A program made the translations under genes and the position numbers. From an uncultured delta proteobacterium (GTDB taxonomy: Bacteria > Desulfobacterota > Desulfuromonadia > Desulfuromonadales > BM103), in assembly GCA_963715335.1 (NCBI GenBank), contig CAVQRZ010000012.1, positions 1 through 64,000 of the forward strand: a stretch of DNA of 64,000 bases. The letters are read 5' to 3'. Under the pieces are notes generated by a model, which searched no databases, was not told the DNA's origin, and saw nothing but the letters and a program-made list of their open reading frames with translations. Positions 8,999 to 61,323 of the stretch are shown here, one piece after another. Within the stretch, counting starts at the first letter, position 1. Each line of letters opens with the position of its first letter.

Positions 8999-9013
8999 CC
9001 GGAAAAATGGTTG

Positions 9014-9131
9014 GCCGCCAAGACTCCAAGACACGAAGACAAGACAACCGAACCTGGGCGGGAATCGATTCAAAATGCGCTTTATAGCTCATAGATAACT
9101 GATTTTCTTGGTGTCTTCGTGGCTTTGTGGC
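9014..9131. repeat. Palindromic intergenic element built of nested 8-9-mer repeats
   Basis: GCCGCCAAG-ACTCCAAG-ACACGAAG ... CTTGGTGT-CTTCGTGG-CTTTGTGGC; a related copy lies at 47627-47707. Confidence 0.7.
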
Positions 9132-9154
9132 GACGAGTCTTTGTTTGGGTTATA

Positions 9155-9276
9155 TGCTTATTATCATCCAACCCCACCACCTGTTATGAAAAACCCTCCA
9201 CCGGTTATCATCGAAAACCTGCCACCCAGAATCATCGAAATTCACCCACTGGTTCTTGACTGAAACCATCTACTTG
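9155..9276 (+). repeat. Left end of element: terminal IR plus tandem putative transposase-binding repeats
   Basis: Units AACCCCACCACCTGTTAT / AAAAACCCTCCACCGGTTAT / GAAAACCTGCCACCCAGAAT / GAAATTCACCCACTGGTT / GAAACCATCTACTTG. Confidence 0.85.
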
Positions 9277-9556
9277 CCGTCCACCAGTTTTAATTTAACG
9301 CATCCCTTTGATATCGCTTTGGCGAAAAACATATAGCAAGGAACCTCGCGGCGACGGTGTTATTTATCCTGGGGTGATATAGTAACTCAATGCAACAATA
9401 CTTATAGGAAAGTCACAATCCAGAGAAACCGGATGGGGTTTTATTTTGTTGGAAATGGTGATTAATGATAAGCACTCGGCACCTCGATGTATCAATAAAT
9501 TCATCAACGGCTTGAAACCAATGTCATGTCTAATCTAAAAGTCGCTAGCAATGAGT

Positions 9557-10555
9557 TTAAATCCCCTTAGATAACATCCAGTCAGTCGTGTTGAAGAAAC
9601 TAGTCACGTATCTCCCTGGTGGTACTAGGTCATCACAAAAGGCGCGATCCTCCATCGTGAGTTGAATTTTGCAACTCGGAAGCAGGTCATCAAATTGTTC
9701 AATATTTCTGGGGCCTATAATTACTGAGGATATTCCTGGTTGACTTAACACCCAGGCTGTTGCTAATTGGCTAGGCCTATAATCTTTTTTCTTGGCATAC
9801 TCAACAAATGCTTTACCTATTTCTATTCCAACCGAAGAGATACGCTCCCTAAATACATCTCGCAAGTTTCCTCTGCTTCCTTCAGGGAAGTTTACAGAAT
9901 TCAGATATTTCCCAGCTAATATACCTTGGGCAATTGGTGACCATGCCATGACCCCAAGATCATAGTGCTGGCACATGGGAATAATTTCATTTTCACTTCT
10001 CCGATCAAGCAAATTATAGGGGGGTTGCTCGCAGACAAAACGTGGGTACCCATACCTCTCTGAGATATTTAATCCCTCCACTGTTCTCCACGCAGGCTGT
10101 GTTGAACAAGCTGCATAGCGAATTTTGCCTTGCTGCCTGAGATGATTGAGCGCTTCTAGTGACTCTTCTTGATGTACAAAGAAATCCGCGCGGTGAAGGT
10201 AGTAAATATCTAGATAATCTGTTTGCAGCCGCTTCAAACTATTCTCGCAACCTTCGATAATATGATGTCGAGAATTTCCTTTGTCATTGGGACCAGAAGA
10301 CGTTGGATTAAAAACCTTGCTTGTAAGTAAAACGTCTTTACGCTTTCTATTCGATTTCAGTATGTTGCCAAGAATTCGCTCTGCCTCACCTTGGTTGTAA
10401 ACATCGGCACAATCAATAACATTAATCCCTTTATCAATAGCTTCATTTACAAGACATGAAGCCTCTATCTCCCCTGTGGGTGAGCCAAAGTTCATAGTAC
10501 CAAGCGCCAGAGCTGACACCTGCAAGCCTGATCTGCCTAATCGTCTGTAATTCAT
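9557..10555 (-). CDS. Aldo/keto reductase
   Basis: LGRSGLQVS.LALGTMNFG, IDCADVY, SLKRLQTDYLDIYYLH, EQPPYNLL, WSPIAQG. Confidence 0.92.
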   Translation of the reverse strand: MNYRRLGRSGLQVSALALGTMNFGSPTGEIEASCLVNEAIDKGINVIDCADVYNQGEAERILGNILKSNRKRKDVLLTSKVFNPTSSGPNDKGNSRHHIIEGCENSLKRLQTDYLDIYYLHRADFFVHQEESLEALNHLRQQGKIRYAACSTQPAWRTVEGLNISERYGYPRFVCEQPPYNLLDRRSENEIIPMCQHYDLGVMAWSPIAQGILAGKYLNSVNFPEGSRGNLRDVFRERISSVGIEIGKAFVEYAKKKDYRPSQLATAWVLSQPGISSVIIGPRNIEQFDDLLPSCKIQLTMEDRAFCDDLVPPGRYVTSFFNTTDWMLSKGI

Positions 10556-10706
10556 AAGTAAGTACCTATCGGAATAAATATTGTTTAACCGCTGATGGGT
10601 TCAGAGGAGACCACATCCAATGCGTTGCCTATAATTCTACGGATTATCTGATGCCACCGATACGTCCATAATCTTTCATTGGTGACCAAAACTCCTATTT
10701 GTTGTG

Positions 10707-12146
10707 TCAAAAGTTAATCTGCTCTGAATTGAGTTGATGAACCTTTAGCAGATTAGTTGTTCCGGGATCCGAGAGGGGACTGCCCATGGTAATCACAACC
10801 ATATCTCCTGGTTGTAAAACTCCTGCGTCTAGAACGCTCTTTTCCACTAGCTGAATCTGTGCTTCAGTATCTCCCTGGATATCGACCCGTAACGATTGTA
10901 CGCCAAAATAAAGTGCCAAGCGACGGCGAACTGTCCGCGATGGGGTGACAGCATAAATTGGCATTGTGGGGCGATACTTAGCCACTAGGGCTGCGGTATT
11001 GCCTGACTGGGTAAAGGCGAGGATGGCTTTGGCTCCGACACTTTGTGCGATTCGACAGGCTGCCTGCCCGATCGCTTCAGACAAGTTGACAACCTGCATA
11101 TCCTCTCTCACTTGAAATTGTTTTGGAGCGATCAGCGTTGCTTTCTCGACATCTCTGGCTACCGAATCCATTATTTTCACGGCCTCAAGCGGATATTTCC
11201 CCGAGGCGGTTTCGGCGGAGAGCATAATTGCGTCGGTACCGTCGAGGATCGCATTTGCCACATCGGATGTTTCCGCGCGCGTTGGGCGGGGATTATTGAT
11301 CATGCTTTCCAGCATCTGCGTGGCGGTTATAACCGGTTTGCCAACATTGTTACATTTACGGATAATCCTTTTTTGGATCAGGGGAACTTTTTCCGGGCTA
11401 ATTTCCACGCCCAGATCACCTCGGGCCACCATCACGCCATCGCTCACTTCAAGGATGCTTTCAAAGTTCTCAACCGCTTCCGGTTTTTCGATCTTTGAAA
11501 TCACCTTAAGTGTTGAACCACTTTTCTGTAACAACGACTTCAGCTCGAGCACATCAGCAGCTCGACGGACAAAAGATAATGCCACGTAGTCTATTTCCTG
11601 ATCGATGCAGAATTGTAAATCCTGCTTATCTTTTTCCGTCAGGGAAGGCGCCGAGACTGTAACGCCCGGCAGATTGATCCCTTTGCGGTCCTTGAGAATC
11701 CCACCGAATCGAACCCGGCAGCGCACATCTTCCCCCTGGACCTTGACAACTTCCAACTCCATCAGACCATCATCGAGCAGAACTTGATCTCCGGGGCTAA
11801 CATCTTGAGGAAGGTTTTTGTAGACGGTCGGAATCAGTCCAGCTTCCCCCAAAACGTCTCGCGAGGTGATGATGACTCCCTCCCCCTCAGTAAGAGCCAT
11901 CGCTCCTTCTTTGAGCAAGCCAACGCGGATTTTAGGCCCCTGCAGATCGCCCAAAATAGCCACTGCCTGTTGCCGTTGTCGTGAAACGCTTCGGATCCGC
12001 TGGATCAGCAGGGTTTTATCTGTCAGGTCGCCGTGGGAGAAATTGAGTCGAAAAACTGAAACACCGGCCTCGATTAGGGCTTTGATGGTATTCTCTTCGC
12101 TGGTCGATGGACCCAGTGTAGCGATAATTTTTGTATGTTTGAACAT
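10707..12146 (-). CDS. pyk: Pyruvate kinase
   Basis: TKIIATLGP, RLNFSHG, DLQGPKIR, SKIEK, MVARGDLGVE, TATQMLESM, PTRAETSDVANA. Confidence 0.97.
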   Translation of the reverse strand: MFKHTKIIATLGPSTSEENTIKALIEAGVSVFRLNFSHGDLTDKTLLIQRIRSVSRQRQQAVAILGDLQGPKIRVGLLKEGAMALTEGEGVIITSRDVLGEAGLIPTVYKNLPQDVSPGDQVLLDDGLMELEVVKVQGEDVRCRVRFGGILKDRKGINLPGVTVSAPSLTEKDKQDLQFCIDQEIDYVALSFVRRAADVLELKSLLQKSGSTLKVISKIEKPEAVENFESILEVSDGVMVARGDLGVEISPEKVPLIQKRIIRKCNNVGKPVITATQMLESMINNPRPTRAETSDVANAILDGTDAIMLSAETASGKYPLEAVKIMDSVARDVEKATLIAPKQFQVREDMQVVNLSEAIGQAACRIAQSVGAKAILAFTQSGNTAALVAKYRPTMPIYAVTPSRTVRRRLALYFGVQSLRVDIQGDTEAQIQLVEKSVLDAGVLQPGDMVVITMGSPLSDPGTTNLLKVHQLNSEQINF

Positions 12147-12233
12147 GATGAGTTCATTTCTACTGAAAACAAGAGTCAGAAAGCTGAACGGGAATTTTCC
12201 TTATTTACTCAACTTCAAAAATGCAAAGCTCGA

Positions 12234-13649
12234 TCAATCGTCTAGATCGTTATTATTGTTAATAGAATGCTCTATGTTGACTTGATCTTCCTGTTCCCCG
12301 ATCAGGTCTGAGACCTTAGGGATTATTATCAGATGAAGATCCATAACATTTGTATTCGTAGGGCCTGTAATCAAAAGATCATCGAGAGCTTGAAAGAAGT
12401 TGTATGAATCATTATTTTCTAAATATTCACCGAAGTTGAGATTTTTGGCTCTCGCTCGTTCCAGAGTTGTATTGTCAGCAATGGCTCCCGCGGCATCGGT
12501 CGGTCCGTCGTTTCCATCTGTTCCACCTGACAGAATGACTATAGGTATTTCACCGGCGATGTCGCCAACTGTGCACAAAGCAAATTCCTGATTACGCCCG
12601 CCTAACCCGCTACCTTTTAATGTAACGGTTGTTTCACCACCTGAGAGAATACATACCGGTGGTCTTATGGGATGACCTGAATTGATGGCCTCTTTGGCAA
12701 TAGCCGCATGCATTCGAGCAACTTCGCTAGTTTCACCTTCGATCAGGGAAGAAAGGATTATTGTCTTGTATTTAAGATCAGTTGCTTCTTTTTTTGCTGC
12801 TAATAAGGCTTCAATATTACTTCCGATGATATTGCTACATGTTCTTTCAAATATAGGATTATCGGCTTTTGGCGTCTCTAGCGCTTGATCGGCCAAGCCA
12901 TTTTCAAAGTGGTTTATCACCGATTTTGGCAATCGATCATAGATTCCATACTTGGCCACAATATTTAAACAATCTTTAAAGGTACTGTTGTCCGGAACAG
13001 TTGGCCCAGATGCGATGACATCGAGATCGTCACCAACAACGTCGGACAGAATCAGAGAAACCATAGTAGCTGGGTAGGCAGCGACGGCCAATCTGCCGCC
13101 TTTAATACACGAAAGGTGTTTCCGGAGAGCATTAATTTCATGGATTGTCGCACCGCATGCCAACAGGGTACGGGTTGTCTCCTGTTTATCAGTCAGGGTA
13201 ACACCAGGTACGGCGAGTGGAAGCAGGGCAGAGCCACCTCCTGACAATAAACATATGCATAGATCATTGGCTTTTGCGGCATTGGCAATTTCCAGAATCT
13301 TTGTCGTACCAATTTCTCCGTTTTGATCAGGGACGGGATGACCGGCTTCGATGGTTTGTATCTTTTCTAAAGCGGCAATGTGTCCATACTTGACGGTAAT
13401 AACTCCAGCCGTAAGTTTTTCACCTAACAAACGTTCAAAAGCCACAGCCATTGGGGCAGTGGCCTTTCCCGCGCCTACGATATATATATTTTCGAAGGCG
13501 TTAAGGTCGTAGGTTTCTTTTCCAATGGTTAACACATCTCCTTGGCGTCGACAAAAACGGTCGATCGCTCCTTCGGGAGCGACAGCCTTAAGTCCAGCTC
13601 TAAAAATCGCCAAAGCGTCTTTTCTAGCCTTTTGAAGTAAAGATGTCAT
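12234..13649 (-). CDS. Glycerate 2-kinase (MOFRL/TtuD family)
   Basis: GAGKA, EAGHPVPD, LLSGGGSAL, SDVVGD..IASGPT, GGETTV, GGRNQE, GTDGNDGPT, TGPTNTNVMD. Confidence 0.93.
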   Translation of the reverse strand: MTSLLQKARKDALAIFRAGLKAVAPEGAIDRFCRRQGDVLTIGKETYDLNAFENIYIVGAGKATAPMAVAFERLLGEKLTAGVITVKYGHIAALEKIQTIEAGHPVPDQNGEIGTTKILEIANAAKANDLCICLLSGGGSALLPLAVPGVTLTDKQETTRTLLACGATIHEINALRKHLSCIKGGRLAVAAYPATMVSLILSDVVGDDLDVIASGPTVPDNSTFKDCLNIVAKYGIYDRLPKSVINHFENGLADQALETPKADNPIFERTCSNIIGSNIEALLAAKKEATDLKYKTIILSSLIEGETSEVARMHAAIAKEAINSGHPIRPPVCILSGGETTVTLKGSGLGGRNQEFALCTVGDIAGEIPIVILSGGTDGNDGPTDAAGAIADNTTLERARAKNLNFGEYLENNDSYNFFQALDDLLITGPTNTNVMDLHLIIIPKVSDLIGEQEDQVNIEHSINNNNDLDD

Positions 13650-13821
13650 CGTTTTGTATGCCTATTGGGCTGTTTTATTGAGTGACAGTTTAATGTCAGG
13701 CCAATATGCAATGTCAGCTCAGTGGATTGGAGATGCCTGGGTGGCGCCCCCCCCTGCTTCCATTTGCAGGGGCAGGGGGGGCAGTTTTCTTCATGTTGGC
13801 GGGATGAATCCTTGTTTGCTA

Positions 13822-14703
13822 TCAAGCGACTTCGTGGGATGCAAGCAGCTCCAGAGCTCGCACCATGGCAGAGTGGTCCCAACCAGAGCCGCCGTTTGCA
13901 GCGCAGGCATTGAACAGTTCCTGTGCTGTAGCAGTGTTAGGCAGGCTGAGCTTCATGGCACGGGCACTACTCAGCGCCAGATTCAGATCCTTCTGATGCA
14001 GTTCAATGCGAAAGCCTGGATCGAAGGTTCTCTTGATCATGCGCTCGCCATGCACTTCTAAAATTTTAGAAGAAGCAAAACCGCCCATCAATGCTTCTCG
14101 CACTTTGGCAGGATCAGCTCCGGCCTTGGAAGCGAAAAGAAGGGCTTCCCCAACCGCCTCGATATTTAGGGCAACAATAATCTGGTTGGCAACTTTACAG
14201 GTTTGGCCGTCACCATTTCCTCCAACAAGCGTAATATTCTTACCCATGAGTTCAAAGAGTGGCTTTGCTTTTTCAAAAGCCGCTTCTGTGCCGCCAATCA
14301 TGATTGTAAGTGTTTGCGCTTTCGCACCGACCTCGCCGCCGGAGACCGGGGCATCCAGATATTCACAACCAAGCTCGTTGATGCGTTTTGCAAATACTTT
14401 GGTCTCAATTGGTGAAATTGAGCTCATATCAATGACGACTTTCCCCTGGGTCAATCCTGTAGCAACACCCTGCTCCCCAAACAAAACACTCGCAACATGT
14501 GGGGTGTCGGGAACCATAATAATAATGAATTCAGCTTTTTCTGCTACTTCTTGCCCATTCCCACAGACAACTGCTCCTTTGTCGATAAGCTCTTGGGGTA
14601 CTCCTTCCAGGGTAAAAGCATACAGATCATGTCCACCATCGAGAAGATGCCCAGCCATGGGTGCACCCATAATACCTAGTCCTATAAATCCGATTTTGCT
14701 CAT
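13822..14703 (-). CDS. glxR: 2-hydroxy-3-oxopropionate (tartronate semialdehyde) reductase
   Basis: GFIGLGIMGAPMA, DAPVSGGEVGA, GDGQTCKVANQIIVALNIEAV, GFRIELHQKDL. Confidence 0.93.
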   Translation of the reverse strand: MSKIGFIGLGIMGAPMAGHLLDGGHDLYAFTLEGVPQELIDKGAVVCGNGQEVAEKAEFIIIMVPDTPHVASVLFGEQGVATGLTQGKVVIDMSSISPIETKVFAKRINELGCEYLDAPVSGGEVGAKAQTLTIMIGGTEAAFEKAKPLFELMGKNITLVGGNGDGQTCKVANQIIVALNIEAVGEALLFASKAGADPAKVREALMGGFASSKILEVHGERMIKRTFDPGFRIELHQKDLNLALSSARAMKLSLPNTATAQELFNACAANGGSGWDHSAMVRALELLASHEVA

Positions 14704-14780
14704 TTTTTTCTCCTTTGATATTTTTTGTAATCTTGCTTCTCAAGGCCCTGGAAAGTGAGATGTAAACAACGTAGACCTTC

Positions 14781-15557
14781 TTATTTGTAGGGTTCAAACC
14801 ACCCTAACCCCTCCTCTGTTTTATTGGCAGGGACATATTCGCAACCGATCCATCCTCTGTAGCCGATTCGATCAAGAAAATCGAAAAGAAAGGGATAATT
14901 AATCTCGCCTGTTCCTGGCTCGTGACGTCCAGGGCTGTCTGCCAACTGGATATGCCCTATGCTGTTGAGATTTTTTTCAATTGTAGGGGCAAGATCACCT
15001 TCCATGATTTGCATATGGTAAATATCATATTGCAACTTGATGTTGTCTGATCCGGTAGCTGCTATGATGTCAAGAGTCTGCTGGGTACCACACAGGAAAA
15101 AACCTGGGATATCCCTTGTGTTGATCGCTTCTATTACCAGACAGATGTCATTTTTGGCCAATTCGGAAGCTGCAAACGCTGCATTGTCAGTCAAAGTTTT
15201 ATTCAACACATCGATATCAACACCTTCAGGTGCTATTCCTGCCAACATATTTACTTGGGTATTCCCTAAAGCTTTTGCATATTCGATAGCCTTGCCAACG
15301 CCATCCTGAAACTCACCAATTCGATCGGGGAAAATACCAATACCACGCTCACCTGCGCTCCAATCACCTGCAGGCAGGTTATGCAACACTTGTTTGAGAT
15401 TATTTTTCTTTAGCAAATCAACCAATTGATTCACTTCAAAAGCATAGGGGAACAGATATTCAACCCCCTTGAAACCAGCCTTGGCGGCGGCATCAAAACG
15501 ATCTAAAAAATCTACTTCCTGAAACATCATTGATAAGTTTGCGGCGAAATTTGGCAT
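14781..15557 (-). CDS. hyi: Hydroxypyruvate isomerase
   Basis: FAANLSMMF, VEYLFPY, HNLPAGDW..GERG, YDIYHMQIMEG, PGRHEPGTGEINY, GCEY. Confidence 0.93.
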   Translation of the reverse strand: MPNFAANLSMMFQEVDFLDRFDAAAKAGFKGVEYLFPYAFEVNQLVDLLKKNNLKQVLHNLPAGDWSAGERGIGIFPDRIGEFQDGVGKAIEYAKALGNTQVNMLAGIAPEGVDIDVLNKTLTDNAAFAASELAKNDICLVIEAINTRDIPGFFLCGTQQTLDIIAATGSDNIKLQYDIYHMQIMEGDLAPTIEKNLNSIGHIQLADSPGRHEPGTGEINYPFLFDFLDRIGYRGWIGCEYVPANKTEEGLGWFEPYK

Positions 15558-15605
15558 ACATACCTCCTTTTTAAATATCTCTCTTTTGCGATAATTCTGA
15601 CTTCA

Positions 15606-15627
15606 ATAATTTATAAATTATAAATTA
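15606..15627. promoter_or_regulatory. Putative GntR operator (copy 1) upstream of hyi
   Basis: ATAATTTATAAATTATAAATTA, identical to 20076-20097; contains the palindrome ATAATTTATAAATTAT. Confidence 0.7.
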
Positions 15628-15821
15628 TATTTTTGCAAGTCCGAATTCACCAGAAAGCATAAAACTCTCTTCATACTTCCAAAGACAAGGAAGCGGCTCT
15701 AGACACCTCTGAGGAAATCTGTGAGAAATGAATGTGTTATGTCAGAAAAAGCATCTCGCAGGAAAAATCGGCGGGTTAAACCTGACCTGACAGACACCGT
15801 GATTGCGTCAGGTGATAACTA

Positions 15822-16463
15822 CTAGGTTTTATTGAAAAGGTTTTTGCGCATCGAACGAATATTTATTTCAATAGCTTTTTGTGCTGCTAAAACATCTCTT
15901 TTTTTAATCGCCTCGGTAATACTCCTGTGCTCCTTGAGAGTGGCTTTGTTTTTTATTTCAGGATCGCTCTTTTTTTCTTTTATTCGGACCAACTGGAAAA
16001 AAGCTGAAAACTCGTCTAATAACCTTATTAATCGAGCATTGTTTGAAAGTTGAGCAATCATAGAATGAAATTTGCTATCAAGTTTATTGCATTCAACAAA
16101 ATCTTTCTGTTCAAGCGCCTTTTCAAATTCTTTCAATGAATTGCAAATTGCCTCAATATCCTCATCTGTCGCACGTTCAATGCATTTCTGGATAGACAAA
16201 TTTTCCAGGGAAATCCGAATTTCAATATGGTCCTGAATCTGCTCTGGTAATGGATCAATAAGATATAAACCTTGTTGAGATTTTTTGACTATTATCCCGT
16301 CTGAAACAAGTCGGTTTATTGCTTCACGAATCGGTGTACGACTCATCGAAATCTCTTTAGCGAGAAGGTCTTCTCTTATTCTGCCGCCAAGCTCGAATTC
16401 TCCATCCAGTAATTTCATTCGGATGATTGAGTAAGCCGCTTCATTCATGCTTTTATACATCAT
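15822..16463 (-). CDS. GntR family transcriptional regulator (FCD domain)
   Basis: wHTH REDLLAKEISMSRTPIREAINRL; FCD motifs EIRISLE, DSKFH, EHRSI. Confidence 0.92.
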   Translation of the reverse strand: MMYKSMNEAAYSIIRMKLLDGEFELGGRIREDLLAKEISMSRTPIREAINRLVSDGIIVKKSQQGLYLIDPLPEQIQDHIEIRISLENLSIQKCIERATDEDIEAICNSLKEFEKALEQKDFVECNKLDSKFHSMIAQLSNNARLIRLLDEFSAFFQLVRIKEKKSDPEIKNKATLKEHRSITEAIKKRDVLAAQKAIEINIRSMRKNLFNKT

Positions 16464-16653
16464 GTATTGCTGTGATCCTTTTCCTTAAGATTTACGATCT
16501 AACACCGCAAATATTACTATTTTGTGTTGCATGATTCAAGGATACTTCATCTTGGTGAAAAATCGTTGATATTGTTTTCACTGGTCTTTTCTTTAGGGAG
16601 CGCCTTTATTCATAGTGAAGCAGAATCTGGAACAACCCAGAGAAATTCCGGTT

Positions 16654-17034
16654 TCAAACGGCTGCAATAGCCTGCATTTCCACCAGAGCACCTTTTGCCA
16701 AGGCAGCGACCCCTACAGTCGCCCTGGCCGGATAACTGTCGCTGAAGTATGATGCATATACTTCATTCATCTTTTCAAAATCATTCATGTCGGTAAGATA
16801 GATCACCACTTGGAGGAGGGTTTCCATCGAGCCTCCTGCCGCCTCTACGACAGCTTGCAGGTTTTTCAGAGTTCTATGCGTCTGCTGCACGATTCCGCCA
16901 TCCACCAGTGCACCGGTTACAGGATCGAGCGGCAATGCACCGGAAGTAAAAACCATTCCGTTGAATGCCATAGCCTGACAAAATGGTCCAAATGCGGCAG
17001 GCGCATTATCAGTTGATATTTGTTTCATATCCAT
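16654..17034 (-). CDS. RidA/YjgF family enamine/imine deaminase
   Basis: APAAFGPF.QA, FTSGALPLDP, MNEVYASYF, PARATVGVAAL..GALVE (conserved Arg). Confidence 0.92.
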   Translation of the reverse strand: MDMKQISTDNAPAAFGPFCQAMAFNGMVFTSGALPLDPVTGALVDGGIVQQTHRTLKNLQAVVEAAGGSMETLLQVVIYLTDMNDFEKMNEVYASYFSDSYPARATVGVAALAKGALVEMQAIAAV

Positions 17035-17040
17035 TCACTC

Positions 17041-18375
17041 CTACATTGTACTTGGCAGCCAAAGGACGATCTGCGGAAAGATAATAAGTAGAATAAGACC
17101 GAGGGCCACGATAAAGACAAAGGGAAGCATGCCGCGAATGATATCTTTCGTTTCGATGCCAAGGCTTGGATCGGCCGCACCTTTGAGGAAAAACATTGCG
17201 TAGGCAAAAGGTGGCGTTAAAAAAGACATCTGCAGGTTAACGATGATCATCATTGCAAACCACAATGGGTCAAACCCTAGAACAGGGACGATAGGAGACA
17301 GAATAGGAACGAGGACAAAAATAATTCCGACCCAGTCAATAAATGCTCCCAACAGGAAAGTGACTACCATGATAGCCGTAAAAACAGCCCATTTACCGCC
17401 TGGGAACCCCAGGATTAAATCTTTGACGACGTCGCCACCGCCACCGGCAAGAAAAACACTGACGAATGCAGTGGAACAGGCGGCAATAAGTAAAACCATG
17501 CACGTCAGCTTAATCGTACTAATCGAGACCTCCATAAGACCCTTAAAAGATAACTGTCTGTAGCTGGCAGCAAGGATTACGGAAACTACTGCGCCGACAG
17601 CCGCAGCTTCAGTTGGAGCTGCAATACCAGAGTAGATTGCGCCTAGAACGGAAAGGATGAGAATCAGTGCGGGCACCAATGATGTCACAAGCATTTTCAT
17701 TTTCTGAAAGCTTGTATTTTGCCCCTGTTCTTCCACACTTATAGCTGGGGCTATCGACGGTTGCAGAAACGCCCTGATGGCGATATAGATCATATACATG
17801 ACCGACAGCATCAGGCCTGGCCCAAAAGCAGCCATAAACAACTTGCCAACCGAGATCCAGGCTGCGGGGCCATAGACAATAAGCATGATACTCGGTGGAA
17901 TCAGGATTCCAAGCGTACCACCTGCACAGATACACCCAGTAGCTAAGCCTTTATCGTATCCTCGTTCTATCATGACCGGTAGTGCGACCAAGGCAAGCAT
18001 GGAAATTGAAGCGGCGATCACCCCAATACAGGCAGCCATAATAGTACCGATCAAGATACTGACAATCGCAAGACCACCTCTGAAATTGCCAAAACTGACA
18101 TACAAACTCTCGTACATTTTCTTGGCAATACCTGAACGCTCAAGCATTCCGCCCATAAAAACAAAGAGCGGGACAGCCATAAAGCCGGTGTTAGTCAGTT
18201 GGGCGTAAACTCGGGCGTATATCATGTCGAAGACTGAATCTCCGAACATTAGAAAACCGAAGAGGGCACCCGCTCCTCCAATAGGAACGGCCAATGGATA
18301 GCCTGTCAACACGCCAAGAAACAGAACCGTGAACATTCCTATCGTTACAAACTCGGGAGTCATTGTAATGTCCAT
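17041..18375 (-). CDS. dctM: TRAP transporter large permease
   Basis: AVPLFVFMG, RGGLA, GTLGILIPPSI, PTEAAAVGA, FLTPPF; many TM segments. Confidence 0.95.
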   Translation of the reverse strand: MDITMTPEFVTIGMFTVLFLGVLTGYPLAVPIGGAGALFGFLMFGDSVFDMIYARVYAQLTNTGFMAVPLFVFMGGMLERSGIAKKMYESLYVSFGNFRGGLAIVSILIGTIMAACIGVIAASISMLALVALPVMIERGYDKGLATGCICAGGTLGILIPPSIMLIVYGPAAWISVGKLFMAAFGPGLMLSVMYMIYIAIRAFLQPSIAPAISVEEQGQNTSFQKMKMLVTSLVPALILILSVLGAIYSGIAAPTEAAAVGAVVSVILAASYRQLSFKGLMEVSISTIKLTCMVLLIAACSTAFVSVFLAGGGGDVVKDLILGFPGGKWAVFTAIMVVTFLLGAFIDWVGIIFVLVPILSPIVPVLGFDPLWFAMMIIVNLQMSFLTPPFAYAMFFLKGAADPSLGIETKDIIRGMLPFVFIVALGLILLIIFPQIVLWLPSTM

Positions 18376-18950
18376 CAGATCATTCCTTCTTTAACGTATA
18401 TTGCATCCGTCTCGGCAAGACTTTCTCCTTTTGAAAGAAAATATATATTCTTTATTAATTCTGAAAGCGTCTGCATAAAAAACAAAATAAATCCAATAGT
18501 TAGTACCGCACGAAAAGGTGCTGAAGGGGGAAGCCAGCTACTATCAACCATTCGTTCGTTCACCTTTAATGCGAACAGCGTCCACTTTGTTCCCGAATAA
18601 ATCAGGATGAACTGAATTGGGAACAGGAAAAGCACAGTCATTATGACATCGACGATTGCTTTCCACTTTTCGGAAAACATCGTATAGAACACATCGACCC
18701 GCACATGTCCGCCAATTTTCAGTGTGTAGCCCCAACAAAGCGCGGCAATAGAGCCAAAAATCATCTGTGATGTTTCAAGTGCCCATATTGTTGGCTTATT
18801 AAAAACGTATCGTGAAACCACTTCGTAGGTGAGGACAAAAATCAACAACAGGATCAGATATTTTGAGAATTGAGCCATGAAGTCACTCATTCTGTCGATA
18901 GCACCAGTGATTTTTTTCAGTATTTCTGAACTCATGCCGCGTCTCTCCAT
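18375..18950 (-). CDS. dctQ: TRAP transporter small permease
   Basis: YEVVSRYVFNKPTIWA, GHVRVD; four TM segments; abuts dctM. Confidence 0.93.
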   Translation of the reverse strand: MERRGMSSEILKKITGAIDRMSDFMAQFSKYLILLLIFVLTYEVVSRYVFNKPTIWALETSQMIFGSIAALCWGYTLKIGGHVRVDVFYTMFSEKWKAIVDVIMTVLFLFPIQFILIYSGTKWTLFALKVNERMVDSSWLPPSAPFRAVLTIGFILFFMQTLSELIKNIYFLSKGESLAETDAIYVKEGMI

Positions 18951-18998
18951 GATTACGCCGCCGCAACTGATGAATCAGTTGCGGCGGCGACACACAAA

Positions 18999-20057
18999 TT
19001 ACTGAATGTTAAATTGCTTACTGATCAGCTGCCATCTTTTGACGGAGTCGTAAATCTCCTTAAAAGCAGGATCTTTCGCAGCCTGTTCATCGTAATAGGC
19101 TTCTGCCGTTTTGTAGAGAAGAGCTTCAATATCAACAGGCACTTTTGAAATGATAGTGCCATATTTTTCGAACTCTTTCAGTGCTTCTGCGTCACGCACA
19201 ATTTCGGTTACATAATATTGGTCTGCAACTGCAAAGGTCGCGTTTGTAACAATGGCTTGAAGGTCTGCCGGCAGTTCGTCCCATGCCTTCTGGTTGACAA
19301 AAAGCGCCTGAGCATCAGTTGGAGCTCTGGATGTAGAAAGATACATGTATTTGGTCACTTCTTGAAATCCCATTCCCCAGTTAACAGAAGGTGTTACATA
19401 TTCAAACCCATCTATAATTCCGCGTTGAGTCGCTTCGTACACTTCCCCTCCTGGCATAAAGACAGGGGATGCGCCCATCCGCGCAAAAATTTCATTCAGA
19501 GCCGCTGACCCCATCCTTATCTTGAAACCCTTGAGATCTGCGACACTGTTGAGCTGTTTGGTGCTGTGCGCCCAGACCTCTGCGTTATGGGGAGTTAATG
19601 GACCGACGTAATGAGCACCCAACTTTTTATAACTCTTCTGGGCTAGCTTAAGACCTTCGTACTCAAGCCACATTCTTTGCTGGTTGGCGGTTAATCCGCC
19701 AACAGTATTGTTATAAAAAATGGCCCCAGGGAAATACCCAAGTGACCAACCTGGCGCTCCGTGAACAGCTTCAACCGAACCTGAGAGAACCGAATCAAAT
19801 TCTTTTCCTGCTGGAATAATAGCCCCTGCATTAAACGGCTTGATAATCAAACGACCATCGGAAGCTTTCTTAACCAGGTCAGCGAATTTAAGACATGCAT
19901 CATAGGTGGCATCTCCAGATGATGCCCAGGATTGAAGTTTCCATGTAATGACCTTTTTGTCGGAAGCAGCTTGACTTTCACTAGGTCCCGTGAATAACGC
20001 TACACTAATCAACGCGACCAACACGAACAACGAGGTAAAACGGACTCTTTTTTTCAT
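18999..20057 (-). CDS. dctP: TRAP substrate-binding protein (TakP/2-oxoacid-binding-like)
   Basis: Signal peptide; ITWKLQS, SDGRLII, DLKGFKIR, PGGEVYEATQRGIIDGFEY. Confidence 0.92.
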   Translation of the reverse strand: MKKRVRFTSLFVLVALISVALFTGPSESQAASDKKVITWKLQSWASSGDATYDACLKFADLVKKASDGRLIIKPFNAGAIIPAGKEFDSVLSGSVEAVHGAPGWSLGYFPGAIFYNNTVGGLTANQQRMWLEYEGLKLAQKSYKKLGAHYVGPLTPHNAEVWAHSTKQLNSVADLKGFKIRMGSAALNEIFARMGASPVFMPGGEVYEATQRGIIDGFEYVTPSVNWGMGFQEVTKYMYLSTSRAPTDAQALFVNQKAWDELPADLQAIVTNATFAVADQYYVTEIVRDAEALKEFEKYGTIISKVPVDIEALLYKTAEAYYDEQAAKDPAFKEIYDSVKRWQLISKQFNIQ

Positions 20058-20075
20058 GTCTTTTCTCCTTTTTGT

Positions 20076-20131
20076 ATAATTTATAAATTATAAATTAGGC
20101 TTACTATCATCATTTTTTTAATGCGTGTCAA
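20076..20131 (-). promoter_or_regulatory. sigma70 promoter of the TRAP operon plus putative GntR operator (copy 2)
   Basis: TTGACA (20131-20126)-17 nt-GATAGT (20108-20103), immediately followed by the 22-bp box at 20076-20097. Confidence 0.72.
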
Positions 20132-20299
20132 GAAAAAAAATGCTCTAGAATTATTGTTGAATTTAGCTATTTGAAAGCGCTCAGGGAACAACGTGTTTTT
20201 TCGTTTGGAATTCGGGGGACACCCCATTTAACTTACCTCAGGCAAATACATTGTAGATAGAGCGGCAATCTCCGGTCCGCCACTGACTCCACCACACAC

Positions 20300-20328
20300 G
20301 GCTCATCCTTCGGGATGGGCCTTTTTTT
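20300..20328 (+). terminator. UUCG-tetraloop hairpin with U-tract
   Basis: GGCTCATCC-TTCG-GGATGGGCC-TTTTTTT. Confidence 0.65.
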
Positions 20329-20350
20329 ATTTCCAGAAAGGAGAAACATC

Positions 20351-20671
20351 ATGATCCGACTACTGTCCACCGACCAAGCCCTGAGTCTCAAGGGCAAAAT
20401 CCCCGAGTTGGCCATCCTGAGATCCATTCAATTCCAAGGCGAAGGCTATGACCCCGACATCCACGGGGTCATTCTGGTCTTGGAGCCTGGAGACAACCCC
20501 TGCCTTATACCCGAGATAGGCCCTGAAGGGTTACTTGATAAGGCTGGCCTGCCCTGCTGGGAATTCGCTGAGTGTTTCATTGAGGAAGATGGAAGCCTGG
20601 CCTTCGAAGTCGTCGTTGTCATCTCGAATGACAAAGTGGTGGAGAGCGATCTTCCCAAGGTCGCTCTTTAA
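20351..20671 (+). CDS. Hypothetical protein, possibly a C-terminally truncated mobile-element gene
   Basis: RBS AAGGAG then ATG 20351; 106 aa, acidic; locally higher GC than the rest of the cargo. Confidence 0.55.
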   Translation: MIRLLSTDQALSLKGKIPELAILRSIQFQGEGYDPDIHGVILVLEPGDNPCLIPEIGPEGLLDKAGLPCWEFAECFIEEDGSLAFEVVVVISNDKVVESDLPKVAL

Positions 20672-20887
20672 TTTCTTATAAGTCCTCCTACATTGTTCTA
20701 AGTCACTCAGATTGGTTCAAATACGAAATTCCTACTAATCCTGATTTTTAGGATTCAATTGTAAAATCATTTTTTGCAAATTCTTGCAGTCCAAAACTTT
20801 GAGTTTTTTAAACAGTGGATTCCAAGTAGGCGATTAACTCTCAAAACCTCTCCTTCCTGACCCGGAGTTACGGTTGTCATTTTAGAA

Positions 20888-21009
20888 CAAGGGGATGGGT
20901 TTCAGACAATAATCGGTGGATGGCTTTCAGCAATTCCAGGTGGAAGGGTTTTGTAATCAGTGGATGGATTCTTTTGATAACAGGTGGATGGGATTGATCA
21001 TAATAAGCA
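20888..21009 (-). repeat. Right end of element: terminal IR plus tandem repeats
   Basis: Reverse-complement units AATCCCATCCACCTGTTAT / GAATCCATCCACTGATT / AAAACCCTTCCACCTGG / GAAAGCCATCCACCGATTAT / GAAACCCATCCCCTTG. Confidence 0.85.
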
Positions 21010-56010: not shown

Positions 56011-56645
56011 CCACGACGCACTCCTCAGCCCGGCAGCTCGGCCTGATCAGTTGCCATGCCTGCCACCTGCTCAACCGCAAGGCAAAAACATCCGTGCATG
56101 AAGTTGCCTGTTGCTCACGCTGCGGCGAAGAATTGCATCAACGCAAGCCGAACAGTCTCATGCGGACCTGGGCACTGGTGATTGCGGCCATGGTTTTCTA
56201 CATTCCGGCGAACGTCCTGCCGATGACGATCACTTCAGCTCTGGGCACGGTGCAGGCCGACACCATTATGAGCGGCGTGATCTACTTCATGCAACACGGC
56301 TCCTGGGAAATCGCCCTGATCATATTCACCGCGAGCATCTTTGTCCCGTTCCTGAAATTTATCATCCTGATCTACCTGCTGCTTTCCATACATTTCAAAT
56401 CGATCAAACGACCCAGAGATCGCACCAGGCTATATCGATTCACGGAAGCGATCGGTCGCTGGTCGATGCTCGACATCTATGTTGTGACCATCCTGGTTGC
56501 CCTGGTCAAACTCGGTTTCCTGGCGGATATCGAAGCCGGCCCGGCAGCCCTTTATTTTGCTTTGGTCGTTGTGACGACCATGATCGCCGCGGAGAGTTTT
56601 GACCCGCGATTGATCTGGGACGTTGTGGAGGAAAAACATGAGTGA
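56007..56645 (+). CDS. pqiA: Paraquat-inducible protein A (C-terminal half)
   Basis: CHAC...CSRC, RKPNSL.RTWAL, PANVLP, GRWSMLD, FDPRLIWD. Confidence 0.92.
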   Translation: MTTTHSSARQLGLISCHACHLLNRKAKTSVHEVACCSRCGEELHQRKPNSLMRTWALVIAAMVFYIPANVLPMTITSALGTVQADTIMSGVIYFMQHGSWEIALIIFTASIFVPFLKFIILIYLLLSIHFKSIKRPRDRTRLYRFTEAIGRWSMLDIYVVTILVALVKLGFLADIEAGPAALYFALVVVTTMIAAESFDPRLIWDVVEEKHE

Positions 56646-58315
56646 AGGAAACTCCGAAAGGAAGCATGCCGAACAGGCCCCGGAAGCCGTGGTGCAAACC
56701 AAGCGCAGCTTCTCGATTATCTGGGTGGTGCCGATCATTGCCCTGCTGATCGGTGGCTGGCTGACGTTCAAGGCGATGACGGAAAAGGGACCGGTCATCA
56801 CCATCACCTTCGAGACTGCCGAAGGGCTTGAGGCTGGCAAGACCAAGATCAAGTTCAAGGACGTTGAGGTCGGCAAGGTTACGGATATTACCCTGAATGC
56901 AGACCGCTCGAACGTTGTTGTCAGCGTAGAGATGACTCCAGACGCCAAGCCTTACCTGACCGAAAAGACCCAGTTCTGGGTAGTTCGCGCTACAGTCGCC
57001 GCCGGTAAGATTTCCGGATTGGGTACTTTGCTTTCCGGAGCTTATATAGGTATCAATCCGTCATCTGAAGGCGAGAAGACAAGGCGCTTCAAAGGGCTGG
57101 AAAAGCCCCCGGTACTGACCGAAAAACTGCCTGGACAACATTATACTCTGGAAGCCCACAGTCTTGATTCCCTCGACATCGGTTCACCGGTTTACTACCG
57201 TGGCATCAAGGTCGGCCAGGTGGTCGAATATCACTTCAACGAAGACGCTGAGTCGGTGTTGATTAAAGTGTTCGTCAATGCACCGTACCATGAGAAAGTA
57301 CGACAGAATACCCGGTTCTGGAATGCCAGCGGCATTGACATGACCATGGACGCTACCGGCATTAAGCTGAACACCCAATCGCTGGTCTCAATCATGCTCG
57401 GGGGGGTGGCTTTTGACCTGCGTCAGCACGATCCCCCCGGGGAAGCGGCCAAGAAAAACCATAAGTTTATGCTCTATCCAGACCAGGAGAGCAGCAAGCA
57501 GGAATCCTACGAGATCAAACGCTACTACGCGATGTATTTCGACCAGAGCGTGCGCGGCCTCTCACCCGGAGCGCCTGTGGAGATCAAGGGTATCCAGGTT
57601 GGCGAGGTCGTCAGTGTCAAACTGCAATTCGATCAGAGCACGCTGGATTTCCGTATCCCGGTCGTGATCGCTCTTGAACCGGAACGTCTGGATGTCGTGG
57701 TCACGGAAACCGGAGAGGTTGTAACAGGCGAGGCAAAGGAAGATGTCCTCGAAGAGGAAACGAGCCATACATACTGATCTGGATACTCGCACCCAAAAAC
57801 TTATCGAAAAAGGCTTCCGTGGCCAATTAAAGACCGGCAACCTGTTGACCGGCCAGTTGTACGTCGACCTTGACTTCTACCCCGATGCAGCTCCGGCCAC
57901 GCTCGAGAAGGTTGATGGGTACACGGTCTTCCCGACCATCTCGGCACCTTTGGAGCAGATCGTCCAGAAGGTTAACAACATCCTTAAAAAAGTGGAGCAG
58001 GTCCCCTTTGGCAAGATCGGCCAGGAACTGCAAGGGGCTATTGCTGAACTCACGACGACCCTGGAAGAGATCAAAGGCATCTCGGGGAAAGTCAACGAAG
58101 AGACCATCCCGAAGGTCAATGCTTCGCTTGAGCAACTCCAGGAGACCTTGAACGGTATCGAGTCAACCCTTGGACCGGATTCCGCACTGAACTACAACGC
58201 TCGCCAGGTGACCAGTGAGCTGGCACTGGCGATCAGGTCGATCCGGTCCTTGCTGGAGTACCTGGAACGTGACCCGCAGGCTTTGATTCTCGGTAAGGAG
58301 GGAGACAAGAAATGA
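56638..58315 (+). pseudogene. pqiB: PqiB (3 MCE domains), split by a +1 frameshift near 57755-57775
   Basis: ORF1 ends ...EEETSHTY* in the middle of MCE3; the next frame continues ..QKLIEKGFRGQLKTGNLLTGQLYV...YLERDPQALILG. Confidence 0.85.
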
Positions 58316-59062: not shown

Positions 59063-59594
59063 AGGGCAACAGATGGTTAATCTGTTGCCCTTTTCCCTTT
59101 TCTTGAAAGGCTTAAAAGCAAAACCGGCGGGTCGCGTCCCGCCCGACGCCATACTTTTGTCCGGCAACAAAAGTATGCAAAAGTGCCTTCTCCTTGCGGA
59201 GGGCATCTCCTCTGCCGGATTTCTGTGACTTCAAAAACCCTTACTGATGGGGATCCGGCCCTGTGTCAAAGGGCCTGACCTTGCCGTGTGATTTACCAGG
59301 GAAAAGCCAAAACAACCTTTACCGAGACAAACCTCGACGAAAGGAGAGGCTCTCAAGAGCCTCGGCTCCTGCGGGGGAAGCGCAGGCTCCTGATCGTTTA
59401 GAACCATCCGGATTGAGGCTGCCGCCCTGCCGAGCCAGACATGCCCAGCGCAGCGCAGGCCCTTTTTCTGCTTACTCTTTTGGGCCAGCAAAAGAGTAAG
59501 GCGCAGTCGGGGGGCGCGACCCCCGGGTTTTGCTTTTATCTTTGAATTCCAAAGAACAACGGCAAAGGGCAACAGATGAACCATCTGTTGCCCT
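59063..59594. repeat. MITE/REPIN-like composite palindromic element (532 bp)
   Basis: Terminal hairpins AGGGCAACAGAT-N5-ATCTGTTGCCCT at both ends (59063-59091, 59566-59594); inner long IR TAAAAGCAAAACC..GGGTCGCG..CCCGAC (59113-59147 vs 59507-59538); inner hairpins TACTTTTG..CAAAAGTA and TACTCTTTTG..CAAAAGAGTA. Confidence 0.8.
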
Positions 59595-59716
59595 CTCTAT
59601 CATGGAGTCTGGTTGAACTTTGTCAGCAGTGAGGGGCCCATTGATTGAAGCGCCCCTGTTTGCACCTTGGCTGTTAAAAGCGGACTCTTTTCTACTTGTG
59701 AATGTTCAGTATATCG

Positions 59717-60283
59717 TTACGAGATCGACGCCAGGAGCTGTTTGTAGAAATTGTACGCTTCCATCCCACCTGGATTGTCGTGAGAGGCCAACGAATCGAC
59801 CTTCAGGAATTCCAGCAGCAACGGAAATCTCGGATCGGCCAGGTACTTTCTCTGTTTTTTACTGAGGTCTTGCGGCTGCTGCAACTGCCAGGAGTGGTGG
59901 AAGGTGTGGTGACGGATCACCCAGGTGATTCGCGCGCGACGCTCTTCAGGCATGCCGAGCCTGGCAAGAATAGCCGCCGCCATTTCTGCGCCCCGCTTGG
60001 CATGACCGTAGGCGGTGATCCGACCATCGACATTCCGTTCCGTGGTTGCCGGTTTGCCTATGTCGTGCAGCAGAGCAACCCAGAGCAGGTCCGGGTCGCA
60101 ATCTGCCGGGCAGGCCTCGATCGCCAACCGGGTATGGATGGCGACATCACCCTCGGCATGATATTCCGGCGGCTGTTGTGTCCCGGACATCTCCAGCAAC
60201 TCCGGAATGACGTCACAAAGACGATTCCACCAACCGCTTTCGCGCCGTCGCAGCTCTTTTTCAAGCAGCTCTGCTGAACTCAT
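59717..60283 (-). CDS. Stand-alone HD-domain phosphohydrolase (resembles the HD domain of CCA-adding enzymes)
   Basis: PEL....Q.P.YH.EGDV..HT, ALLHDIGKP, GHA..G, HH, C-terminal D. Confidence 0.85.
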   Translation of the reverse strand: MSSAELLEKELRRRESGWWNRLCDVIPELLEMSGTQQPPEYHAEGDVAIHTRLAIEACPADCDPDLLWVALLHDIGKPATTERNVDGRITAYGHAKRGAEMAAAILARLGMPEERRARITWVIRHHTFHHSWQLQQPQDLSKKQRKYLADPRFPLLLEFLKVDSLASHDNPGGMEAYNFYKQLLASIS

Positions 60284-61095
60284 GTCTGGCTCTCTTCCGG
60301 GCTCTTGACATAATAATCTGCAGATCTCTCCAGGTTGCTCTCCCAGCGACTGCAGGCGATGATAATGCGTTGCCAGCCGCTCGGAATAATTTCCTGGGTG
60401 TGGGCCAGGTTGTTACGCAAGGTTTCAAGCTCCTTGATCGCATTACGGGTCTCCTTACGCGACTTATGGCCAAGCTTCTCTCGAAGTTTTTCATCGTAAG
60501 TGATGATCCAGCCCTTGTCGCCAAACTGCAGGCAGTCGAGCAGCTCAACCTGCTGGCCACGACGGGTTCTCTCTTCCTGAAGTTTTTTCGCAATATCAAT
60601 CCGTTTTTCGGAAAGAAATTCCTGCCAGGAATTGTCGGGGTACAGTTGACGCAAGACCTCCGTCATGGTCATTTCGATCATGGTGATCATACCGAACAGG
60701 AACATACGCATTGGCGGCTTTTCCAAATCGGTTAAAGTGATGATGGCACCCACATGGTCGAGAATGGTGACAAAGCATTGCTGGTTGATTGCCAGCGACT
60801 GGACAACGTCAATCAGGTTCGCTGTATCGGGGATCAGGTCGTCGTCAGGCGTGAAAGAATGGAAGTGTTCGCCGCAAAGCCCGGAAGTCAGTTCATCACG
60901 GCGGACATAGCCTTCGACCAGGCCGTTCTGGCGAACCCCAACCAGATCGAAGTTCTTTTCGTCCATGAATTGCCTGACATCTGCCGAGTTGGTGCTCTCG
61001 TCAAAAGAGACCAGGGGTTCGGCAACATCCATCGCCGAGAACCCTTCGAGGAACAGGCGGCGCAGACGTGAACTTTGGGTGCCTCTCCAGGGCAT
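60280..61095 (-). CDS. CBS-pair + HEPN (Swt1-like) domain protein
   Basis: Two CBS-like repeats (..FMDEKNFDLVGV...VEGYVRRDEL; ..ANLIDVVQSL...VGAIITLTDL), then a helical domain with N-terminal Glu (MIEM), LDCLQFGD and the R-X4-H motif RNNLAH. Confidence 0.75.
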   Translation of the reverse strand: MPWRGTQSSRLRRLFLEGFSAMDVAEPLVSFDESTNSADVRQFMDEKNFDLVGVRQNGLVEGYVRRDELTSGLCGEHFHSFTPDDDLIPDTANLIDVVQSLAINQQCFVTILDHVGAIITLTDLEKPPMRMFLFGMITMIEMTMTEVLRQLYPDNSWQEFLSEKRIDIAKKLQEERTRRGQQVELLDCLQFGDKGWIITYDEKLREKLGHKSRKETRNAIKELETLRNNLAHTQEIIPSGWQRIIIACSRWESNLERSADYYVKSPEESQT

Positions 61096-61323
61096 ACAGC
61101 CTCCTCTGAAATGATGGGAACAACTTAAACCAAAGCTATTTTATCGTAAAGAGCTGCAAAGCGCTGATCAAAGCGTCTGAAATTTTTGAACTTATTTAAA
61201 CAGAAAAATGCTTTTAATATTGATAGGACAGGTTCCTATAGTAGAATGCAAACTGCTGGAATACCTAACAATTACTTCCTATAAATGACTGATCTCAGAG
61301 GATTAGGAGAGAGGGGAGGTCTC

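Follow-up and report, generated by a model that had tools for sequence, protein, structure and literature searches.

The 64,000-nt stretch of DNA analyzed here (the window) encodes, on its minus strand, a protein in which a CBS pair is fused to a HEPN domain (P0001) and, overlapping its 3′ end, a stand-alone HD-domain protein (P0002). We read P0001 as a putative RNase activated by an adenine nucleotide and P0002 as an optional reset that would act through healing of tRNA 3′ ends, the two together allowing a reversible arrest; we place the probability of this reading at about 0.45. The architecture, motifs, gene coupling, homology to the anti-phage protein DS-11, HD ancestry (as judged from sequence), and stable chromosomal position are direct observations; by analogy, an adenine nucleotide would bind the CBS pair and activate a HEPN dimer. 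The design is a known one: its prediction dates from 2013, and its validation, in the distant relative DS-11, from 2026. The features are as follows.

60280..61095, minus strand: P0001, 271 aa, predicted RNase under ligand control, with a CBS pair joined to a HEPN domain of the Swt1/AbiF type; distant DS-11 homologue
60694..61047, minus strand: CBS pair (Bateman module) of P0001, residues ~17–134, placed by fold searches, conservation, and alignment
within 60694..61047, minus strand: CBS pocket residues of P0001, F49 (counterpart of DS-11 Y157 in the alignment) and, from the second nucleotide motif, T120/D123
60400..60417, minus strand: HEPN motif R227-N-N-L-A-H232 of P0001, from conservation in homologues; aligns with the equivalents of DS-11 R330/H335
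61100..61105, minus strand: AGGAGG ribosome-binding site, 4 nt ahead of the P0001 start, read from the sequence
60280..60283, minus strand: ATGA stop/start overlap of P0001 and P0002, read from the sequence
59717..60283, minus strand: P0002, 188 aa, predicted phosphoesterase with an HD domain standing alone, most similar to that of class II CCA-adding enzymes
59063..59594, no strand assigned: gene-less nested inverted repeat of ~530 nt with 29-nt palindromic ends, lying outside the module, between convergent pqiC and P0002

Architecture of the gene pair

P0001 contains a HEPN_Swt1 domain (PF18731) at residues 143–251, scoring 34.8 bits against a Pfam cut-off of 27.5. Folded alone, its HEPN half found AbiF as the top match in a wide structural search (Z 8.6, rmsd 3.3, 131 aligned), a range in which scores are to be read with caution, Z below about 13 being common for helical bundles. 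A HEPN toxin and other HEPN proteins came next, with the Swt1 C-terminal domain also listed; by our reading, the top 15 matches are mostly HEPN-fold proteins. Foldseek with the HEPN half returned nothing at E 0.001, and a PDB sequence search with P0001 gave no significant match. The pairing of R227 (123 of 123 aligned homologues) with H232 (122 of 123) is nearly invariant. The Pfam score, the AbiF match, and this conservation uphold the assignment to HEPN of the helical domain bearing RNNLAH, which an earlier note on this DNA had made and had proposed to check by motif conservation and by AlphaFold and structure searches.

The CBS half is reached by Pfam alone at E 0.27. The AlphaFold model of P0001, built from the 123 homologues, has a pLDDT of 92, and solved CBS pairs match residues ~17–134 in a structural search (best Z 11.7, rmsd 2.2, 112 aligned); moreover, 42 of the 123 homologues match Pfam CBS. 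The two CBS-like repeats that the earlier note had recognized are thus borne out as a CBS pair, and both the CBS and the HEPN fold are recovered. G-h-h-T/S-x-x-D is the CBS nucleotide motif. Across the 123 aligned homologues, D123 of the P0001 pocket is kept in 113, T120 in 92, and F/Y at position 49 in 83; among 119 close homologues, both F/Y at 49 and D123 are kept in every one.

P0002 matches the HD family PF01966 at 40.4 bits (Pfam cut-off 22), and its best NCBIfam match is the HD part of CCA-adding enzymes. H50, H73, D74, H94, H126, and D163 are invariant in all 17 aligned rows, a fragment of the E. coli CCA enzyme included. Identity is 47% over 169 aa with the CCA enzyme P0287 and 26% (E 4e-10) with that of E. 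coli. In a quick tree, the P0002 clade is nested among CCA HD domains with P0287 as its sister (support 87); our trees, rooted at the midpoint, come from quick searches with no bootstrap and give no order of events. The longer relatives listed for P0002 comprise 18 HEPN fusions, 2 DNA-methyltransferase fusions, and 100 others, nearly all of them class II CCA/poly(A) polymerases with an HD domain (34–47% identity to P0002); one listed relative joins the HD to an AAA_33 kinase. Sequence of the CCA body flanking the HD is still present in P0002. Judged by these sequence comparisons, the HD ancestry of P0002 is CCA type, and the earlier description of an intact, CCA-like HD domain lacking the nucleotidyltransferase stands, with the metal ligands kept throughout and CCA HD domains as the nearest relatives. 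Separately, we observed two proteins (P0283 and P0284) in which a DNA cytosine-5 methyltransferase is fused to an HD domain that falls inside the P0002 clade, with 58–59% identity to P0002.

The HD domain of the E. coli CCA enzyme is described as stripping 2′,3′-cyclic phosphate off damaged tRNA ends (PMC6961547), and HD-Pnk is described as an end-healing enzyme (PMC6097658); in these accounts, both belong to enzymes that remove 2′,3′-cyclic and 2′/3′ phosphates. P0002 resembles them in its 26–47% identity to CCA HD domains and in keeping all metal-binding residues. Unlike them, it has no nucleotidyltransferase or kinase domain, and it is tied to the gene of a predicted RNase. The host genome holds three polymerase-family genes, which we read as a poly(A) polymerase, a DHH-CBS A-adding enzyme, and a CC-adding enzyme. 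P0002 as query matches none of the three, and the likely CC-adding enzyme has no HD motif by eye.

Both ORFs lie on the minus strand; their coordinates, lengths of 271 and 188 aa, and ATGA overlap at 60280–60283 are all as first noted. The window's family spans 44 genomes, of which 21 carry P0001 (9 of the 23 high-quality ones). P0002 finds matches in 23 of the 44; two of these are 36%-identity frames of 456 and 559 aa that read as CCA enzymes, which leaves 21 orthologues. The two sets overlap in 20 genomes, so 20 of 21 P0001 carriers also have the HD gene. The carrier lacking it is a 100% complete genome (G043), and the single genome of the 44 with an HD orthologue and no HEPN gene (G018, 59% complete) has it as a fragment at a contig start. 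Among the best P0001/P0002 matches, the window included, the arrangement is tandem in 15 of 15 loci, and relatives contain single-frame fusions of both parts (460–484 aa). A neighborhood survey had been suggested as a check on the coupling; with 20 of 21 carriers and fusions besides, the pairing is conserved. Contigs from sediment metatranscriptomes, from relatives differing in about one letter in ten, cover both genes, and two span the junction, although contigs cannot show transcription. An antisense ORF at 59702–60277 gave no Pfam match and was set aside as a shadow ORF.

Kinship with DS-11 and a candidate mechanism

The earlier note had offered the combination of CBS, HEPN, and HD as a candidate module; the design is not novel, having been described in 2013. 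Among the fusions of Swt1-like HEPN domains, Anantharaman et al. (PMC3710099) record “CBS and HD (alr3009), active,” and from in silico work they suggest nucleotide-dependent control of RNA stability. Likened by domain description, P0001 shares with the alr3009 group a Swt1/Abi2-class HEPN, the CBS fusion, and an intact R-x4-6-H motif. An HD phosphohydrolase is adjacent here and fused in relatives (4 of CCA type and 4 of SAH type among the best 80 of 439 loci). The accessible part of the 2013 account leaves the HD family unspecified, does not speak of a form divided over two genes, and contains no experimental work; it is the only paper on alr3009 in the literature we searched, which leaves most subscription literature outside.

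DS-11 (E. coli WP_000257686.1, 365 aa, CBS plus HEPN_Swt1; NCBIfam NF053863) is reported as validated against phage in the DefensePredictor study (Science 2026; PMC13092281), where Y157A and HEPN catalytic mutants lose defense. A search for DS-11 with CBS and phage, within the same literature and its same bounds, returned only two versions of that study. P0001 has the DS-11 domain order, a CBS pair followed by HEPN_Swt1, and the P0001 family aligns collinearly with DS-11-type proteins over both domains (HHalign; 209 columns, probability 95.2, E 2.7e-8). When aligned via a DS-11-type protein, Y157, R330, and H335 of DS-11 correspond to F49, R227, and H232 of P0001, the DS-11 numbering being counted by eye from a supplement row. 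The DS11 model is matched weakly by 28 of the 123 members of the P0001 alignment, more than for any other family (best E 1.3e-7). In contrast, P0001 has no match to NF053863 at E 0.01 (cut-off 260 bits), a model on which three DS-11-type controls score 348–401 bits. Because the profile match is collinear and the family matches are present, yet NF053863 is not matched, we consider it likely, by analogy, that P0001 works like DS-11 while standing outside the DS-11 family. The two also differ in that their identity is about 14–17% with no significant BLASTP match; in that DS-11 has an extra N terminus of ~120 residues (the match starts at ~139 of a 370-aa DS-11-type protein and at residue 26 of P0001); and in that DS-11 is a single gene without HD, placed as a distant outgroup in the quick tree. 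We also observed DS-11-type single genes in five viral contigs (L106, L107, L108, L111, and L114), in the first three between phage structural, lysis, or replication-type genes.

Two other kinds of known system invite comparison. CARF-HEPN effectors (Csm6/Csx1) with a ring nuclease follow the same logic of a sensor-gated HEPN accompanied by an enzyme that may end the response; here, the sensor is CBS rather than CARF, and no Cas or cyclase family occurs among the scanned neighbors, as the earlier note had it. Elsewhere, the host does have a DacA-type cyclase. AbiF/HepT HEPN RNases are alike in the HEPN fold match, and the weak PADLOC matches of P0001 are confined to its HEPN part; unlike in those systems, no MNT antitoxin or Rfam RNA lies beside P0001/P0002.

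The idea of an adenylate-gated RNase gains support because DS-11 needs both its CBS residue Y157 and its HEPN residues and P0001 keeps F49. Under our preferred reading, stress, whether energy loss or infection, would lead an adenylate to bind the F49/T120/D123 pocket and rearrange the HEPN dimer. R227 and H232 of the rearranged dimer would then cut RNA and leave a 2′,3′-cyclic phosphate, the product that HEPN RNases leave. The target would probably be tRNA near its 3′ end, and translation would stall. P0002 would take off the 2′,3′-cyclic or 2′/3′ phosphate, after which the split CC- and A-adding enzymes of the host, themselves lacking an HD motif, could rebuild the tail. In this lineage, the result would be a dormancy that can be reversed and that may also help against phage. 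We favor healing of tRNA 3′ ends because the HD ancestry is of CCA type; if it holds, the pair would combine cutting and repair in one compact switch that arrests translation reversibly. Counting against this reading, the host genome encodes RtcB, for which cyclic ends would sooner serve as ligation substrates.

HD partners in the wider family

Among 1.84 billion representatives searched, 1711 clusters (50% identity) belong to the P0001 family at E 0.001, and a GTDB scan gave 439 confirmed stretches, the best 80 of which we used for all partner counts. Among these 80 loci, a CCA-type HD gene lies downstream at 23 and is fused in 4 of the 23, a different HD (SAH-type) is fused at the N terminus at 4, and no HD partner is seen at 52, of which 7 have a contig ending close to the gene. 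The CBS-HEPN gene is broken at three of the 80. Since 52 of the best 80 loci have no HD, the HD partner is optional and not an obligatory antitoxin.

These counts bear on a type II-like toxin–antitoxin system with the HD protein as obligatory antitoxin, a reading we regard as very improbable; a toxin was one of the options raised in the earlier note. A translationally coupled two-gene operon and an HD gene almost never alone in the window's family would suit it; however, the HEPN gene does without HD at those 52 loci and in the fully complete G043, and fusion at 4 of the 23 CCA-type loci would defeat differential turnover. An HD-like match elsewhere in the genome was found in 21 of 49 genomes without a CCA-type partner, and a second weak match in 2 of 23 partnered ones. 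These figures give only a hint that the HD might substitute where the CCA enzyme of the host has none, the groups being confounded by kinship, the genomes incomplete, and some matches other HD proteins. By the same figures, healing of RNA ends is not clearly required: the majority of the best 80 loci lack the HD, and a similar HD sits elsewhere in only 21 of the 49 genomes without the CCA-type partner.

The second HD domain belongs to Pfam HD_4, and its matches are to hydrolases of the Mesh1 and Rel/SpoT kinds (best E 3.5e-19). It is not orthologous to P0002, which reaches the SAH fusion P0146 only at E 0.012. In the 120 best relatives of one SAH-CBS-HEPN fusion, HDxxED and R-x4-H are kept in 120 of 120. 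Position 49, always F/Y in the 119 close P0001 homologues, is mostly L/R in the 120 SAH fusions, and position 121, L in 110 of the 119, is R in 120 of 120; this pocket contrast sets one clade against another, with loose alignment near 49 and genomic context covering few of the 119. In the quick tree, the N-terminal SAH fusions form a group (support 81) that excludes the CCA-partnered rows; solo genes are scattered among the latter. At the level of sequence, then, the CBS-HEPN family has recruited two unrelated HD enzymes, one of CCA type and one, in a sister clade, of the Mesh1/alarmone-hydrolase type. Within the literature searched, most subscription literature lying outside it, we found no paper on a double HD recruitment with differing CBS pockets and none linking CBS-HEPN to a small alarmone hydrolase, Mesh1, ppGpp, or a second messenger.

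The substrates of the Mesh1-type hydrolase in the sister clade are small nucleotides rather than RNA ends, which counts against healing and favors removal of the signal as the shared function; the earlier note had raised both roles for the HD. On that account, the gated RNase would be the same, and the HD enzyme would be an off-switch, destroying the nucleotide that activates it. This would be a purine nucleotide with phosphate at the ribose 2′ or 3′ position: 2′,3′-cAMP for the CCA-type pair and (p)ppApp/(p)ppGpp for the Mesh1-fused clade. 2′,3′-cAMP from RNA breakdown could also feed back on the RNase. The recruitment of two unrelated HD families, the joint retention of both active-site motifs in the SAH fusions, and the pocket differences at positions 49 and 121 all speak for this alternative. 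By the title of a 2004 report from Yakunin, the E. coli CCA HD is reportedly a 2′-nucleotidase as well as a cyclic phosphodiesterase, which points the same way. Against it, the pocket difference runs from clade to clade and may be drift, the CCA body flanks retained in P0002 fit an RNA substrate, and DS-11 functions without an HD. On balance we hold the off-switch to be rather unlikely, though it is the main rival to healing; if the HD did remove the ligand, it would name a new RNase-gating messenger.

Taken further, the HD partner would reveal the signal of the whole family: CBS-HEPN RNases would be gated by 2′/3′-phosphorylated purine nucleotides, each clade with a hydrolase for its own ligand. 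A CCA-type hydrolase would serve for 2′,3′-cAMP, with an RNase that amplifies its own signal, and a Mesh1-type one for (p)ppGpp/(p)ppApp in the sulfur-oxidizer clade. We think this doubtful; if true, an alarmone would gate an RNase directly, and there would be a route to the DS-11 ligand. DS-11 showed that a CBS-HEPN protein can stop phage. In the present family of 1711 clusters, whose members occur alone, with a CCA-type HD, or with a Mesh1-type HD, the partner enzymes narrow down which ligands and which chemistries of the RNA end are candidates; some of the fused forms belong to named bacteria, Thiocapsa imhoffii among them.

Several smaller observations accompany the survey. Named members of the large Mesh1/SAH-CBS-HEPN clade (P0146, P0389–P0507; L092, L099, L100, and L103) are sulfur-oxidizing Gammaproteobacteria, and the clade takes in symbionts as well as T. 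imhoffii. At three of the four SAH-fusion loci, a divergent metallo-beta-lactamase-fold gene lies upstream, and a single fusion (P0131) has the SAH at its C terminus. At 1 of the best 80 of 439 loci, a short divergent HD gene (L095:94–570; 33% to P0002) lies directly upstream of CBS-HEPN, and in another single case, a solo CBS-HEPN gene is preceded, in the same orientation and at a distance of ~30 nt, by a Ppx/GppA phosphatase gene (L057:6472–7971). A search of plasmids with P0001 found three distant halobacterial proteins. Two halobacterial plasmid CBS-HEPN genes (L104:5941–6765 and L105:5953–6807) are 22–23% identical to P0001, one of them near an integrase gene, and their group comprises nine plasmid records.

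The chromosomal site

The pair sits between pqiABC and a potassium-channel-like gene. pqiC lies downstream of the pair in eight other genomes, and the channel gene upstream in two of those. GC content is 0.53 and 0.58 for the two genes against 0.555 for the genome. Measured against three relatives, dN/dS is 0.05–0.14 for P0001 and 0.08–0.17 for P0002, similar to the 0.06–0.18 of pqiA and pqiC. On this sequence-based evidence, the pair occupies a stable, conserved chromosomal site and is under purifying selection.

The MITE-like element from which the earlier note had suspected accessory DNA is real, at 59063–59594, but it is a repeat spread through the genome: 22 contigs together hold 55 copies that reach 400 nt or more. 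It is present in one of the eight syntenic relatives and absent from seven; therefore, it arrived after the module. Given this, the conserved site beside pqiABC, the genome-like GC, and dN/dS of 0.05–0.17, the inference of accessory DNA falls away. Rfam scans around the locus, the repeat included, found nothing reaching the gathering score. The repeat is inserted at a terminator-like palindrome and is flipped in the closest relative.

Defense islands, near which the earlier note had suggested checking for enrichment, did not appear in the surroundings. By Pfam, none of 103 scanned immediate neighbors (of 128 at loci L035–L103, short or duplicate ORFs omitted) reads as a defense family, and PADLOC at E 1e-20 gave 3 generic matches (an exonuclease, a methyltransferase, and a cysteine desulfurase) among 114 of 138 second and third neighbors; these ORFs were picked mechanically, shadow ORFs included and with no random-gene control. 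One immediate neighbor bears a phage-type ORF6N domain. Searches of IMG/VR and a phage collection found no relative of P0001.

This setting weighs on a further alternative, that the pair is primarily an anti-phage abortive infection system like DS-11, with the HD as a safety brake and the chromosomal site as an old insertion; it overlaps with both HD roles, end healing and signal removal. DS-11 homology, AbiF as the best HEPN fold match, the patchy presence, the broken copies, and the same type of HD fused to a DNA cytosine methyltransferase in two proteins all lean toward it, and defense systems are also described outside islands (PMC13092281). Conversely, P0001 fails the DS11 model and has no counterpart of the ~120-residue DS-11 N-terminal part, no relative turned up in IMG/VR or the phage collection, none of the 103 immediate neighbors is a defense family and the 3 matches among 114 further ORFs are generic, and the pair diverges no faster than its housekeeping neighbors. 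We judge a primary anti-phage role to be a serious contender, if somewhat unlikely.

Reversible arrest with P0002 as an optional reset, our preferred reading, is helped by the same housekeeping-like behavior, namely, the conserved pqiC neighbor, dN/dS like that of the neighbors, and only generic PADLOC matches nearby. It is weakened by its sole validated relative being a defense protein, by DS-11-type genes in viral contigs, and by a patchy distribution (21 of 44 family genomes) with broken copies (3 of the best 80 of 439 loci), as often seen for defense genes.

Elsewhere in the window, pqiB (56623–58315) is split into ORFs of 384 and 190 aa, with one extra base near 57776 relative to the closest relative; it is a single 558-aa ORF in L031, and the split is a frameshift or an assembly error. 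A 12-kb stretch of low GC (0.40–0.52 against 0.555 for the genome) lies at 9000–21000, 40 kb away from the pair.
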